Of a stretch of 34,690 nt of DNA, positions 1,452 through 34,690 are shown piece after piece; within the stretch, counting starts at the first letter, position 1; every line of letters begins with the position of its first letter. The DNA comes from a virus. The stretch lies in the UHGV virus genome UHGV-0268713, one strand, 5' to 3'. The position numbers were made by a program, and so were the translations under genes. The notes beneath the pieces are model-generated. The model worked only from the letters and a program-made list of their open reading frames with translations, did no database searches and had not been told where the DNA came from.

Positions 1452-1490
1452 GGCACATCCCTGTGCCGCCGCCCGTCAGAAGAACCCAGC
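1452..1490. repeat. 39-bp exact direct repeat, copy 1 (identical to 34652-34690)
   Basis: GGCACATCCCTGTGCCGCCGCCCGTCAGAAGAACCCAGC is identical at both positions, with a mismatch immediately to the left (1451 C versus 34651 A). It contains the hairpin GGCACA-TCCC-TGTGCC and overlaps the 3' end of the antirepressor gene at 1476-2132. Confidence 0.9.
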
Positions 1491-2132
1491 CTTGTCGTTG
1501 ATGTACTCCGCGTGGGTCTGGATATCACGCAGGCATTTGCTCACACCAACGATGTAACAGAACATGGTGGTCAGCTCCGCCGCCGCGCCCGATACATCGT
1601 GCCCGTCTTCCTGTAACTGGTTCAGCAGATTCATCAGCAGTGAGTTCTCCGTCAGGCCGAGAACACCAGACGGAGAATGAATCAGACTGCGGTAGCCGGG
1701 CTTCAGTGGGGCGCTGTATTCTTTTTTGTCTTCCAGCTTGATCGCCTCCATAATGGCGGGCATGAAGCCTGACAAGACCTTCTCCACTTTTGTTTCTTGT
1801 TGTCTTAAACGTTTCTCGCATTCAATGAAGTAGCGTCGTACCTGACGACCTTTTTCGTTACGCTCGACCATTGCTAGTTCTTTGGCTGTATCGAGGGTGA
1901 GGTGGTACTCTTTGCGGTTGTGGCCGCCTCTACCAGATGTTTGCTTTCCCAAATTGGAAAGCAAAATATAGTCTTGATTTTCAATGAATTCGTATTCTGA
2001 AATGCGATTTGTAATCCATGCTGCAAACACCTTTTTAACACCTAAAAAAGCGTGCAGATCGCGGGCATTGCAAAGTAGGGCTGTTTCGTTAGATATAGTG
2101 CCGTTGAATACGGGGATGAGTTGACTGGTCAT
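1476..2132 (-). CDS. Antirepressor paralog 1 (Rha-like N-terminal domain plus KilAC-type C-terminal domain)
   Basis: ORF track 1476-2162; start moved to the ATG at 2132, which has an AAGGAGG Shine-Dalgarno 5 nt upstream. The C-terminal ~75 aa ([37 protein letters not shown]...KAGFF) are identical in protein to the C-terminus of the ORF at 32558-33502, at roughly 95% DNA identity. Confidence 0.8.
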
Positions 2133-2161
2133 GATGACCTCCTTTGAAGTTTTAGTTAGCA

Positions 2162-2184
2162 ATCACCAGTTAGTAGCTGGTGAT
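2162..2184. promoter_or_regulatory. Perfect 8-bp inverted repeat upstream of antirepressor 1
   Basis: ATCACCAG-TTAGTAG-CTGGTGAT, 30-52 nt upstream of the ATG at 2132; candidate operator for antirepressor control. Confidence 0.35.
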
Positions 2185-2456
2185 CGGGTGTCAACTAGAG
2201 CCTTCAAAGACGCTCCGGGCATATTCCCCTTTTGGGTATTGTATTACGCCTCTCCACCCGACCTTTGTACGGATGTGACTATGCCAAATTGCAGGCATAA
2301 AAAAGCCGCAAAGCTATCGGGTGCGGGTGACCGCTTTGAAGTTCTAGTACGGTCAGTATGCGATAGCTCTGGCGGCATTGTCAAATCATGCGCCACTGAG
2401 TCCAGCAATCTCTGCAATACCAATAGCGAGATAATCGCGATTCGTCAGGCGTGATT

Positions 2457-2705
2457 TTATTGCATATGTCTTAGCTCCACTGAAGTTGTGATTTTATATG
2501 GGTTGCCTTTTACCTCAATAACACGATGAGGATCATTTTTTAGCTCTTCCGTAATCTTCCGTAATCTTCTAACAGCTGAACTTCGGTGTTTATAACGGTA
2601 AGTTACAGTTTCTTTTCTCTGTAATACCTCATCATTGCGGTACTTAGTCAAAACCATGACGACTTCAAACCTGACGCCGTTGTGTGCAACCATAATCTGC
2701 TTCAT
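2457..2705 (-). CDS. Hypothetical small protein (83 aa)
   Basis: Internal ATG at 2705 (MKQIMVAHNGVRFEVV...) overlaps the upstream gene's TGA stop as ATGA, suggesting translational coupling. Contains a 10-bp tandem duplication at 2546-2565. Confidence 0.5.
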   Translation of the reverse strand: MKQIMVAHNGVRFEVVMVLTKYRNDEVLQRKETVTYRYKHRSSAVRRLRKITEELKNDPHRVIEVKGNPYKITTSVELRHMQ

Positions 2706-3352
2706 GCTGCACGCTCCCGCCCCTGGTTGTCTGTTGGTGACAGCGGAGCATTGCTGAATGCATTTGTTAATCTGGCAATATCCAACGCGTATCCAGGGTG
2801 TAGTTGCACTGCCGGGTCTTCGCACTGATTACCCCAAACATCGAAGCCATGAGACGACTGGCGGGCGAACAGTTCAATGCGAGAAACATCGCCTAACAAT
2901 TGCACAAGTTTTTCACGAGCGATATCTGGCTTTCTTGAATGCTCAAGCCGCGGTGCGGTAAATGACTGAACGATCCCTGCATTAATGCGCGTAGGTAGTT
3001 TTCCCTTTACCGCAAACAGGCAATCTTCACTATTGGCGCGAGTCATGTGCCCCATACCCATAACCAGTTTATCTGGTTGTCGACTACCACATTTTATCCA
3101 CGTGAAGCCCTTCATCGTCATCAGACGAAATCCCCAGGCTTCAACAACTTTTAGTGCTTCGAGTGGTTGTGTTGGCACCCACCACATGGCCAACAGACAG
3201 TTTTCATCGGCCAAATCCCACACAGGAAGGCGGCAGATATCCAGCACACTCATAACCGGATATTTAAAACCGGCACCGCGATTACCATCTGCGGCTTTGT
3301 CCCGGTATACCCAGGGTGGATCTGCATAGATTAGTGTGTATTTCTTAGTCAT
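2702..3352 (-). CDS. DNA N6-adenine methyltransferase, DPPW-motif (MT-A70-like) family
   Basis: N-terminal MTKKYTLIYADPPWVY carries the DPPW catalytic motif of amino-methyltransferases. ATG at 3352 preferred over GTG at 3364. Confidence 0.8.
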   Translation of the reverse strand: MTKKYTLIYADPPWVYRDKAADGNRGAGFKYPVMSVLDICRLPVWDLADENCLLAMWWVPTQPLEALKVVEAWGFRLMTMKGFTWIKCGSRQPDKLVMGMGHMTRANSEDCLFAVKGKLPTRINAGIVQSFTAPRLEHSRKPDIAREKLVQLLGDVSRIELFARQSSHGFDVWGNQCEDPAVQLHPGYALDIARLTNAFSNAPLSPTDNQGRERAA

Positions 3353-3644
3353 AAACCACCCCACAACATCCTATGCCGCTATAGTCGCCACGGCGAAGGC
3401 CGTTACCTTTTGTGATACATTGGTCCCTGCGAACCGCGATCCTTGCACGCTCAACATCACCAGAAGCAACATCCATACACTGAAGCCAAAGGTGAGCGGC
3501 AATGCGGAACTGCCCTTTTTTCTCTCTTTCAATCGCGCGTTTTTCGATCTCTATCGCCGCAGGAGTAACGGCGACAATCTTTGACGGACTGCGCATTGAA
3601 ACCTTGTTCATGTGATATTTTTCAAGTCGGCTTAACTTTCTCAC
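3345..3644 (-). CDS. Hypothetical protein, start uncertain
   Basis: ORF tightly packed between the AlpA-like gene and the methyltransferase; candidate starts at 3644 (GTG), 3611 or 3596 (ATG); no recognisable domain. Confidence 0.35.
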   Translation of the reverse strand: MRKLSRLEKYHMNKVSMRSPSKIVAVTPAAIEIEKRAIEREKKGQFRIAAHLWLQCMDVASGDVERARIAVRRDQCITKGNGLRRGDYSGIGCCGVVYD

Positions 3645-3753
3645 TTAATCCAACCCTCTCTGAAAATTAATGCCAGCAGATAAAGCCATGCTGAAACAGA
3701 GGCCAGGAATAAGTACCATCCTGACCATTTGCTCCAGTGCCTTAGCAGCACAC

Positions 3754-33578: not shown

Positions 33579-33737
33579 ACGAATGCCACCGCCGCCAGGG
33601 CGGGAATCCGCAGAACGCCCACCGCAGCGGGAGCCGTCAGCGGCAGTATCGCTGTCGTGCTGACAACGACCGGCAAAGGCCTGAGTTGAAGCTACCAGAG
33701 ACAACAAAACGAACAGTGCAGCAAATGCTTTTTTCAT
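33576..33737 (-). CDS. Candidate small secreted peptide (53 aa with signal peptide)
   Basis: MKKAFAALFVLLSLVASTQAFA looks like a Sec signal peptide with an AxA cleavage site; the predicted mature 31-aa peptide is Gly/Arg-rich with two Cys. Upstream promoter-like TTGACG, 16-17 nt, TATAGA; no clear Shine-Dalgarno. Confidence 0.3.
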   Translation of the reverse strand: MKKAFAALFVLLSLVASTQAFAGRCQHDSDTAADGSRCGGRSADSRPGGGGIR

Positions 33738-33807
33738 TGTGAAATTTCCATCTATAAGCCACCTCAATGTGGCGTCAATGAGTGTAGCACTGACTTTTGT
33801 TTCGTCC

Positions 33808-33830
33808 ACAAAAAAGCCCGCGCTGCGGGC
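33808..33830 (-). terminator. Rho-independent terminator for the accessory operon
   Basis: GCCCGC-GCT-GCGGGC hairpin (33816-33830) followed on the minus strand by TTTTTTGT. Confidence 0.55.
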
Positions 33831-34375
33831 TATTCCTTCCATTTATCAGAAAAAAGATCTTCTTCTAAAGGCATTGGTTCTGTTTTTGTTTTCTCAAAGA
33901 ATTGATAACTGATAGTGATTGCTGCCTCTTTAAACTCTTCTTGCTCAGTTATGTTGTGAGCATCTGCGTCAACAAAAAACATAACCAGCGCATCACGATT
34001 GTGATTTACCGAATAAACTAAAAAGCAATCACTTGTTGGTATGCATTTTACTTGTACAGACGCTATATTTTTCCATGCATCCCAAGATGATTTTTTACCA
34101 GTGTGTTTTTTATCACTATCTTCTGGAATATAGTCTTGGTTATCGACATGAGTATGCCTGACATTTAGTTTAAGCATTTCTGTCGGACGAGCAAATGCAG
34201 CATCTTTACCAAGAGATGGATGGTATCCCGTTTTCCAATACTGGGTAAAGGCATCAGATACTTTCTTCAGCTCAAGATCAGATGCACAAAGGGCCGAGAA
34301 ATTTTGCGTATGCAATACTCGACCCTTATATCTGACAATTTGATTTTTATCATTCTGCGACGCAGACGAACTCAT
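33830..34375 (-). CDS. Hypothetical protein (181 aa), AT-rich accessory gene
   Basis: ATG at 34375 with an AAGGA Shine-Dalgarno; low GC; no confidently recognised domain. Weak resemblance of HTH and LVY...H segments to YafO-type toxins is unverified recall. Confidence 0.55.
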   Translation of the reverse strand: MSSSASQNDKNQIVRYKGRVLHTQNFSALCASDLELKKVSDAFTQYWKTGYHPSLGKDAAFARPTEMLKLNVRHTHVDNQDYIPEDSDKKHTGKKSSWDAWKNIASVQVKCIPTSDCFLVYSVNHNRDALVMFFVDADAHNITEQEEFKEAAITISYQFFEKTKTEPMPLEEDLFSDKWKE

Positions 34376-34529
34376 AATTTTCCTTATTGTTACGAGAATC
34401 AAAGAAAGCGCGGGATACGCGACTTGCGTGATCTTTTGTCATAGTAACTTTTACGTACTCTACGCTTCCATTGAAAGAACGTCTTGCGGCAGCTTGCGCT
34501 CTACGCATCTGCAATTTTTCGTTTCGCAT
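34350..34529 (-). CDS. Small basic protein (59 aa) overlapping the start of the downstream gene
   Basis: Hand translation MRNEKLQMRRAQAAARRSFNGSVEYVKVTMTKDHASRVSRAFFDSRNNKENYEFVCVAE; GAGGT Shine-Dalgarno 6 nt upstream; overlaps the 181-aa gene by 26 nt in a different frame. Confidence 0.35.
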   Translation of the reverse strand: MRNEKLQMRRAQAAARRSFNGSVEYVKVTMTKDHASRVSRAFFDSRNNKENYEFVCVAE

Positions 34530-34560
34530 GACATTACCTCATATCTCATAAGTTCATTAC

Positions 34561-34604
34561 ACGGATTAATAAAAATGAAACCAATCCGTTTACCCTTGAG
34601 GTAA
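34561..34604. promoter_or_regulatory. Promoter region of the accessory operon with a perfect operator motif
   Basis: TTACCCTTGAGGTAA (34590-34604) plus inverted repeat ACGGATT-N15-AATCCGT (34561-34589), 25-70 bp upstream of the ATG at 34529. Confidence 0.45.
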
Positions 34605-34651
34605 TAGTACGCTATTCACCCACAGTCTGCAATCGTACAGAATTATTTAAA

Positions 34652-34690
34652 GGCACATCCCTGTGCCGCCGCCCGTCAGAAGAACCCAGC
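34652..34690. repeat. 39-bp exact direct repeat, copy 2, truncated by the window end
   Basis: Identical to 1452-1490; by analogy with copy 1 it probably marks the 3' end of a third minus-strand antirepressor paralog continuing past the window. Confidence 0.85.

Follow-up and report, generated by a model that had tools for sequence, protein, structure and literature searches.

A C-terminal module homologous to SPC32H Ant is shared by antirepressors with different N-termini and control cassettes in an E. coli prophage

A prophage whose repressor cannot be cleaved by RecA needs antirepressors in order to be induced. The Ant-Rep antirepression system of Salmonella phage SPC32H (PDB 5D50/5D4Z) was reportedly described by Kim & Ryu 2013 and Kim et al. 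2016, and domain shuffling in phage regulators of the Bro-N/KilA-N type is said to have been set out by Iyer, Koonin & Aravind 2002. In PMC9638917, a secondary source, the SPC32H Ant tetramer is described as binding two Rep dimers and breaking up the DNA-binding Rep tetramer, and PDB 5D50 holds this Ant crystallised in complex with Rep. An analogue that has been studied by experiment is the isrK-orf45-anrP locus of Gifsy-1 (PMC4825925), and in APSE phages c4 and isrK occur with Bro-N genes and sRNA-Xcc1 with an ORF6N gene (PMC7313666). The present locus was found in UHGV virus genome UHGV-0268713, a stretch of 34,690 nt that was analysed over its whole length (the window) and that forms the left 34.7 kb of an E. 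coli prophage, a phiV10/TL-2011b/epsilon15-like element (Uetakevirus-type). It encodes two complete antirepressors, Ant1 and Ant2, and the cut end of a third, all with one C-terminal module.

Ant1 and Ant2 are identical over their last 77 residues, and the 10 of 228 coding nucleotides that differ between them are all synonymous. At the DNA level the two copies form a 235-nt inverted repeat that is 96% complementary (1475–1709 versus 33269–33503). An earlier note on this DNA had proposed paralogous antirepressors in which different N-terminal domains are joined to one common C-terminus, identical over ~75 residues at ~95% DNA identity, and Pfam and alignment agree with this description. The domain names that it had chosen have to be replaced. 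The Ant1 N-terminus, which had been called Rha-type, has AntA (PF08346, E = 4e-26) as its only Pfam match, with no Phage_pRha; the Ant2 N-terminus, which had been called AntA-type, is P22_AR_N (PF10547, E = 9.7e-45). The supposedly KilAC-type C-terminus matches no Pfam family at E ≤ 1, KilA-C/ANT included, and the full proteins have no KilA-C/ANT match at E ≤ 0.01; it is homologous instead to SPC32H Ant. Thus, phmmer aligned the module with the 86-aa Ant (5D50_E) at E = 4.6e-14 and 8.1e-14 over residues 3–79 of 86, and PHROG 450, which comprises stand-alone proteins of ~88 residues and is listed by PHROGs with unknown function, was matched at E = 1e-35. The AlphaFold model of the module is all-helical, with four helices and a pLDDT of 80, and the only credible match that Foldseek returned for it from the PDB was 5d50_H (prob 1.00, TM 0.52–0.59, E 0.03, rmsd 7.2). 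Compared with the short Ant of related phages, the module is about 36–44% identical, with 29 invariant columns that are spread across the whole domain. On these alignments the module is best regarded as a diverged paralog of SPC32H Ant, at about 37–44% identity.

The module is under strong purifying selection, which keeps its protein sequence identical. Across 11 copies from the window and four relatives (228-nt coding part) there are 25 variable sites, and 24 of these are synonymous (binomial P = 2.5e-14, given that 24% of sites are synonymous); pairwise pS is 0.07–0.20 and pN is 0–0.006. The copies group neither by genome nor by N-terminal class. Indeed, the P22_AR_N copy of TL-2011b shows 4 differences from the AntA copy of the window and 12 from its P22_AR_N copy. 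The resulting mosaic of synonymous variants therefore points to exchange of module sequence between paralogs and between genomes. In addition, the ORF6N protein of relatives shares an extra ~20 linker residues with Ant1, and the fusion junctions vary between classes; such class-specific junctions therefore argue for several independent fusion events. PHROG families 130, 245 and 7940 each match more than one N-terminal class, and the comparison suggests that these classes are distantly related.

A search of 1.84 billion representative proteins (E ≤ 1e-3) showed that the module family is small, with 32 clusters, and that the domain invariably occupies the C-terminus. Stand-alone proteins of 54–110 aa make up most of the family, and the fused members have AntA, Bro-N, Rha or ORF6N N-termini. 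Fusions of Rha to the module are known elsewhere in the protein library (P0027 and P0041), and a homolog search with the 80-aa module as query returned short proteins only.

The repressor of the window, Rep, shares 42% identity with SPC32H Rep (5D50 chain A, E = 4e-42) and 100% with the ORF21 repressor of phage vB_EcoP_ZX5 (ZX5). The earlier observation that the repressor has no peptidase domain stands, since Pfam finds only the HTH. ZX5 ORF4 consists of Bro-N and a module identical to that of the window, and overexpression of this protein was reported to bring lysogens down from 1e9 to 1e6 PFU/mL equivalents and to reduce repressor mRNA by 75% (PMC9782041); the same paper contains no mention of a relation to SPC32H Ant, of the short Ant or of the RNAs described below. 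The explanation that is considered probable for the locus as a whole is that the module sequesters Rep, that different cassettes time this event, and that the module is both selected and exchanged. By analogy with the SPC32H complex, the fused proteins would use their common C-terminal module to bind and sequester this Rep, and repression would be disabled. The N-terminal domains (AntA and P22_AR_N in the window, Bro-N and ORF6N in relatives, Rha in the wider library) would be exchangeable, and the expression cassettes above all, together with these domains, would set the timing of Rep sequestration. The short Ant of relatives would be made on DNA damage, through LexA; Ant2 would be made on infection or on loss of Mnt-type repression; Ant1 and the protein of the third slot would be made when their cognate C4-type antisense RNAs are titrated or absent.

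The cassette of Ant1 contains a C4-like antisense RNA, which lies 42 nt upstream of the Ant1 start and was assigned by Rfam to sRNA-Xcc1, with no match to C4 (RF01695) itself. The loop of its second hairpin, CTTTGAAG (2209–2202), is complementary to CTTCAAAG at two sites. One of them (2149–2142) is the b2-like target at the ribosome-binding site (RBS) of Ant1, and the other (2341–2334) forms part of an a1/b1-like decoy, ACTAGA-A-CTTCAAAG (2348–2334), just past a promoter-like site. An antisense loop, an upstream decoy and an RBS target would together reproduce the logic of the P1/P7 c4 system. There is no ORF in the 42 nt between the RNA and the Ant1 start, for which no in-depth analysis was made, and a coupling ORF of the icd/orf45 kind is apparently absent in the window. 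The perfect palindrome TCACCAG-N7-CTGGTGA (2163–2183) was considered as a protein operator and set aside; because the arrangement recurs with different sequence upstream of third-slot genes, it is now read as a likely pairing of the 3' tail of the C4-like RNA with the leader. No LexA box was found near Ant1 or Ant2, the sole CTGT-N8-ACAG of the window being at 15518, far from both. As a unit, the 1.25-kb Ant1 cassette spans window positions 1452–2696 and comprises the hairpin, the gene, the C4-like RNA, the promoter and an 82-aa ORF (2457–2705, minus strand). It takes the place of the DUF1382 gene found after int in TL-2011b, ZX5 and many genomes, and is present in HEMP4 and ~23 complete E. 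coli genomes (at least 80% coverage).

The neighbourhood of Ant2, to judge from its sequence, has the layout of the P22 immI region (Table 1). The sar-type RNA (32556→32489) begins adjoining the Ant2 start codon, with a Psar-like promoter (32592→32564) at the right distance, and sar was also detected in three loci of relatives (L003, L004 and L007). The C-terminal part of the protein departs from P22, as Pfam finds no P22_AR_C (PF10548) in Ant2. The Ant of the Shiga-toxin (Stx) phage YYZ-2008 is 72% identical to Ant2 over residues 1–224, where the similarity ends, and it carries P22_AR_C (E = 1e-29) in the place of the module; more than 100 Stx-phage records share the Ant2 middle region at ~91% DNA identity, without the module. 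From this C-terminal swap it is therefore inferred that the C-terminal domain is matched to the type of the resident repressor. This suggests that in P22-type Ants it is the C-terminal domain that carries repressor specificity.

The earlier note had predicted a third paralog just past the window end, and this was borne out in every relative examined, from which alone it can be read: the sequence beyond 34690 holds at that slot, each time, a gene ending in the module and the hairpin. In TL-2011b, HEMP4, ZX5 and E. coli OkiPb01683 and 2013C_3963, this minus-strand gene begins where the window stops, and window positions 1452–1751 align at 93–95% with its 3' end. All three antirepressor classes occur in one prophage of E. 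coli 2013C_3963. Public assemblies contain the exact Ant2 protein in 113 blocks, and in the Ant2 contexts shown (8/8) the next downstream antirepressor-type gene carries the module, in which 0–2 of 77 residues differ, and is followed by the same hairpin. By comparison with these sequences, a third module-bearing copy is very likely in this genome. The N-terminus encoded in the third slot is Bro-N (E = 1e-20), AntA or ORF6N in relatives, and even among three contigs that are 99.5% identical over the last 6 kb of the window it is either Bro-N (two variants) or AntA.

Whatever the N-terminal class, the third-slot gene of relatives is preceded by isrK and C4 RNAs (C4 at 61–79 bits). Matches to the four regulatory RNAs (sRNA-Xcc1, sar, C4 and isrK) reach the Rfam gathering level and lie in register with the genes, both in the window and in five relatives. 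The C4 loop of the third slot covaries with both of its targets, as CCTTTGTAG/CTACAAAGG, CCTACTAG/CTAGTAG(G) and CCACTTAG/CTAAGTGG, and the a' pair varies too (ACGCCAA/TTGGCGT versus AGACCAA/TTGGTCT). The complementarity between loop and RBS extends over 8–9 nt and covaries across four specificities.

A fourth member of the set, which the earlier note had missed, is present in relatives. Just past the window end, adjoining the tailspike gene, all E. coli relatives encode an 85-aa Ant that is 86–88% identical to SPC32H Ant; a distance of 21 nt separates its start from an upstream canonical LexA box (CTGT-N8-ACAG). SPC32H has the short Ant only, and its ant gene also adjoins the tailspike gene, divergently. 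In TL-2011b, ZX5 and RefSeq E. coli genomes the 85-aa protein is labelled 'hypothetical protein', and the canonical antirepressor under SOS control in these E. coli phages has apparently escaped notice. These phages thus seem to possess the ancestral, SOS-controlled Ant and, in addition, a diverged paralog in two or three fused copies.

The earlier idea of several independent induction inputs gains strength from the finding that the regulatory cassette differs from copy to copy, and the cassettes can be presumed to respond to distinct signals. A wider reading may be drawn from this, although it is held tentatively and is thought somewhat less likely to be right than wrong. One module would have been spread by recombination onto several N-termini and three to four control cassettes, namely LexA/SOS, P22-type Mnt/Arc/sar and two orthogonal C4-type antisense circuits, and the non-cleavable repressor would become a multi-input decision point. 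The C-terminal domain of Bro-N, AntA and P22_AR_N antirepressors, a large class of which little is understood, would then determine repressor specificity and be swapped to fit the resident repressor, P22_AR_C with lambdoid repressors and the Ant module with an SPC32H-type Rep, with some other role left to the N-terminus.

The exact 39-bp repeat that was noted earlier, including the Ant1 stop and a hairpin, was confirmed (Table 1). The direct repeat, GGCACATCCCTGTGCCGCCGCCCGTCAGAAGAACCCAGC, cannot have arisen by chance in 34.7 kb, and its second copy takes up the final 39 nt of the window. It is made up of a 24-nt 3' flank with the hairpin, a stop codon that reads TCA on the plus strand, and the four final codons (AGFF) of a gene on the minus strand. 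Module homology begins abruptly, ~234–243 nt before the stop, and continues through the hairpin beyond the stop. The 39-bp repeat is hence the 3' edge of a paralogous segment of ~260–300 nt (77 codons, stop and small hairpin) that occurs in the two complete genes of the window and in the third, which the window end cuts. The window breaks off within a multi-copy repeat, so that the figure of 39 nt reflects where the window stops and is biologically meaningless. Short-read contigs typically break at multi-copy repeats, and the window is probably a repeat-truncated contig because it stops in a sequence that is present in three copies per genome. The hairpin has a 7-bp stem and a 4-nt loop, an unremarkable folding energy (z ~ -1) and no U-run on the Ant1 side; its variation among relatives is restricted to the loop, and a degraded form with a small indel is found in the Ant2 3' flank (33508–33526). 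As a candidate intrinsic terminator the hairpin was rejected, as it was missed by the terminator scan, folds unremarkably and shows no compensatory stem changes among relatives.

Several points weigh against sequestration of Rep by the fused proteins. Binding of Rep by the fused module is inferred from homology with 5D50, and the ZX5 ORF4 result comes from overexpression and does not measure binding. The E-value of the fold match is weak (0.03), and confidence in the model is medium. Because the module is only 37–44% identical to the relatives' short Ant, its partner could differ from that of the short Ant. The sar match is only 2 bits above the gathering score, the small Arc-like ORF is weak in Pfam (Arc, E = 0.11), and the third gene is cut off by the window end, with Bro-N or AntA as candidate N-termini to judge from the three closest contigs. 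A rival reading is that the module is only an oligomerisation (tetramerisation) scaffold, with N-termini that act on targets other than Rep, such as DNA or further regulators, and the short LexA-controlled Ant as the sole true antirepressor. The extent of divergence from the short Ant fits this, as do the tetrameric state of SPC32H Ant (PMC9638917), the proposal that Bro-N-type domains bind DNA (PMC7313666; PMC9782041) and the finding that AnrP, the antirepressor-like protein behind isrK in Gifsy-1, raises antQ transcription (PMC4825925). However, P22-type Ant2 has lost P22_AR_C and gained the module in a phage with an SPC32H-type repressor, which is the pattern of a target-specificity swap; a Bro-N protein with the module is reported to cut lysogeny 1000-fold in the presence of an identical Rep (PMC9782041); and the 29 columns that are invariant between short Ant and module cover the entire domain. 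A pure scaffold is accordingly judged improbable. The fused antirepressors could also be aimed mainly at the repressors of other, related prophages that are resident, and so serve anti-immunity on superinfection or cross-induction, in the manner of P22 Ant and the Gifsy antirepressors, more than self-induction; this is considered possible, if rather doubtful. It would accommodate the P22 immI-type unit of Ant2, the documented existence of trans-acting antirepressors, in that the P22 antirepressor is under Mnt control and the antirepressor of one prophage can counter the repressor of another (Lemire 2011, PMC3121763, as reviewed in PMC7380047), the C4 cassettes with at least four loop specificities, which resemble the heteroimmune pair P1/P7, and the median of 2 (maximum 6) matching places in E. 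coli genomes that have the module region. Yet the module is invariant while the Rep types of E. coli and Salmonella members differ. Moreover, action on other prophages does not exclude sequestration of the resident Rep, since both imply the same binding chemistry.

The repeats themselves invite two further interpretations. The direct repeats (Ant1 and third copy) are 33.2 kb apart and the inverted repeats 1.15 kb and 31.6 kb apart, a geometry that, with the mosaic module copies as a sign of exchange, would permit a reading in which the repeats exist mainly so that the prophage can undergo programmed deletion or inversion. The earlier note had raised homologous deletion or inversion, but the predicted int-module-Bro-N junction of a 33-kb deletion was absent from 5,426 complete E. 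coli genomes, in a search that did not extend to the inversion product and that gave no evidence of programmed rearrangement. Purifying selection on the protein implies, in addition, that the segment is kept for its product, and a programmed role for the repeats is regarded as highly improbable. What the module does appear to take part in is homologous exchange over evolutionary time, because synonymous variants are mosaic and the N-terminal cassette is swappable between conserved leader RNAs and the module. As the repeat lies 8 nt past the integrase stop codon and again at the very end of the window, and as contigs often break at repeats, an att duplication, a terminal redundancy or an assembly artefact might be suspected in place of a gene edge. 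This is already contradicted by the data and can be given next to no weight: the att core of ZX5 (and, according to the same paper, of phiV10 and epsilon15) is upstream of int, on the guaA side (PMC9782041), the prophage of relatives ends ~7 kb further on, and both the junction between TTTAAA and GGCACATCC and the continuing gene occur in independently sequenced phages and in complete genomes.

With regard to the prophage as a whole, megablast against phage records gave 97–98% identity over 81–88% of the first 25 kb of the window for HEMP4, TL-2011b, vB_EcoP_ZX5 and phiV10, and ~78–82% identity for the Salmonella epsilon15/SPC32H group. Position 1 of the TL-2011b record corresponds to window position 2. 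In complete E. coli genomes the related prophage sits between guaA and yfgI, and the prophage of the window is integrated adjoining guaA. Past the window end, the prophage of relatives continues with tailspike, O-antigen modification and lysis genes up to yfgI.

Some further features of the window were recorded. The spacer between Ant2 and the third slot harbours variable cargo in relatives, with DUF4760, DUF2335 and other ORFs. In the window it holds, besides small ORFs up to 34650, a YafO-toxin-like ORF (33830–34402, minus strand; Pfam YafO E = 1.2e-5, just at the cut-off), which is on the same strand as the third antirepressor gene and downstream of it. The perfect palindrome GTGACATGTCAC is present three times (12649–12660, 15100–15111 and 33541–33552), a number that none of 100 shuffles reached. 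It is placed directly before terS, directly after terL, and where the virion-gene block ends, adjoining an antirepressor 3' end. Relatives have it at equivalent positions, in SPC32H (L005) at 2145–2156, 19634–19645 and 38629–38640, and the sites of the window coincide with breaks between homology blocks relative to TL-2011b and HEMP4; the palindrome may mark a recombination boundary or serve as a conserved regulatory site. The one perfect CTGT-N8-ACAG box of the window, CTGTACTGGTTTACAG (15518–15533), falls in the gap that separates terL from the portal region, with a tRNA-Arg(tct) gene (15649–15725, minus strand) ~120 nt away, and one chance match is expected in 29% of shuffles. Finally, the replication-gene region contains a 28-nt direct repeat (7815–7842 and 8024–8051, 89% identity, spacing 209 nt), which consists of a hairpin, GTAACGCTGGCAGCGTTAC, followed by the Shine-Dalgarno-like AAAAGGAGT.

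Table 1. Positions of the antirepressor, repressor and control features; coordinates are those of the window except for the last row, which names loci of relatives.
Feature	Position	Strand	Description
Integrase gene	193–1443		Stop codon 8 nt before repeat copy A
Repeat copy A	1452–1490	-	3' flank with hairpin GGCACAGGGATGTGCC (minus-strand reading), Ant1 stop 1476–1478, last 4 codons
Module in Ant1	1476–1709	-	77 codons and stop; homolog of SPC32H Ant (PDB 5D50 chain E)
Ant1	1476–2132	-	218 aa; AntA/AntB domain residues 22–92; module residues 142–218
b2-like target	2138–2149	-	CTTCAAAG at 2149–2142, overlaps or abuts Ant1 Shine-Dalgarno AAGGAGG (2144–2138)
C4-like antisense RNA	2174–2263	-	Rfam sRNA-Xcc1 RF02221, 62.9 bits, gathering score 53, full length
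Ant1 cassette start	2297–2384	-	Promoter-like TTGACA-18-CATACT (2384→2355); decoy; weak hairpin, then U6 run
Rep	6356–6940	-	194 aa; HTH-type, without S24 peptidase domain; presumed module target
Divergent Arc-family (Mnt-like) DNA-binding protein	31766–32197	-	Pfam Arc E 1e-14
Small Arc-like ribbon-helix-helix gene	32318–32485	+	55 aa; TL-2011b annotation; Pant-like promoter 32254–32282
sar-type antisense RNA	32489–32556	-	Rfam RF00262, 45.2 bits against gathering score 43; antisense to Ant2 ribosome-binding region
Ant2	32558–33502	+	314 aa; P22_AR_N residues 12–123; module in place of P22_AR_C
Module in Ant2	33269–33502	+	Inverted repeat with Ant1, identical residues
Repeat copy B	34652–34690	-	3' flank, stop 34676–34678, last 4 codons of third module-bearing gene cut by window end
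85-aa Ant ortholog	L003 12276–12533, L001 35263–35520, L008 2089–2346	-	LexA box upstream

The components of the locus are all of known kinds, namely SPC32H-type antirepression, P22 immI, P1-type C4 control and domain shuffling of the Bro-N family, and its interest lies in their combination and in the evolutionary evidence. No description was found of a Rep-binding Ant domain fused to these N-terminal domains, of three protein-identical copies per genome under separate controls, or of P22_AR_C replaced by the module. The number of signals that enter the switch determines when prophages of E. coli awaken, including relatives in O157 and other pathogenic strains, and the locus offers a case that is concrete and testable. 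As the C-terminal tail has a homolog crystallised with its target, the role of the Bro-N, AntA and P22_AR_N N-termini can be separated experimentally from repressor binding.

Compared with SPC32H, the window belongs to the same phage group and has a Rep of the same family, also without a peptidase domain; its module is homologous to the whole of Ant, and relatives keep the short ortholog with its LexA box at the same site. Unlike in SPC32H, the Ant domain of the window is the C-terminal part of larger proteins with AntA or P22_AR_N N-termini, and it is a diverged paralog, present in several copies per genome, with no LexA box before Ant1 or Ant2. The Ant2 unit shares with P22 immI (mnt, arc, sar, ant) a divergent Arc/Mnt-family gene, a small ribbon-helix-helix gene, a sar RNA across the ant RBS and an Ant with P22_AR_N; it differs in that the module replaces P22_AR_C, the phage is not lambdoid and the repressor family is another one. 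Like P1/P7 immI (c4-icd-ant) and isrK-orf45-anrP of Gifsy-1, the locus has a C4-family RNA in an antirepressor leader, with loops complementary to an upstream decoy and to the RBS region, and several loop specificities; and isrK precedes C4 at the third slot of relatives as is reported for APSE phages (PMC7313666). In contrast to P1/P7 and Gifsy-1, the RNA of the window is sRNA-Xcc1, not C4, it apparently targets the Ant1 RBS directly, and the protein under its control carries an SPC32H-type module. As in the shuffling of Bro-N/KilA-N-type regulators, swappable N-termini of the Bro-N, AntA, ORF6N or Rha type are joined to unrelated C-terminal domains; here, however, three combinations in one genome end in a protein-identical C-terminus, and because a homolog of this C-terminus has been solved in complex with its target, the shuffling can be read in concrete functional terms.

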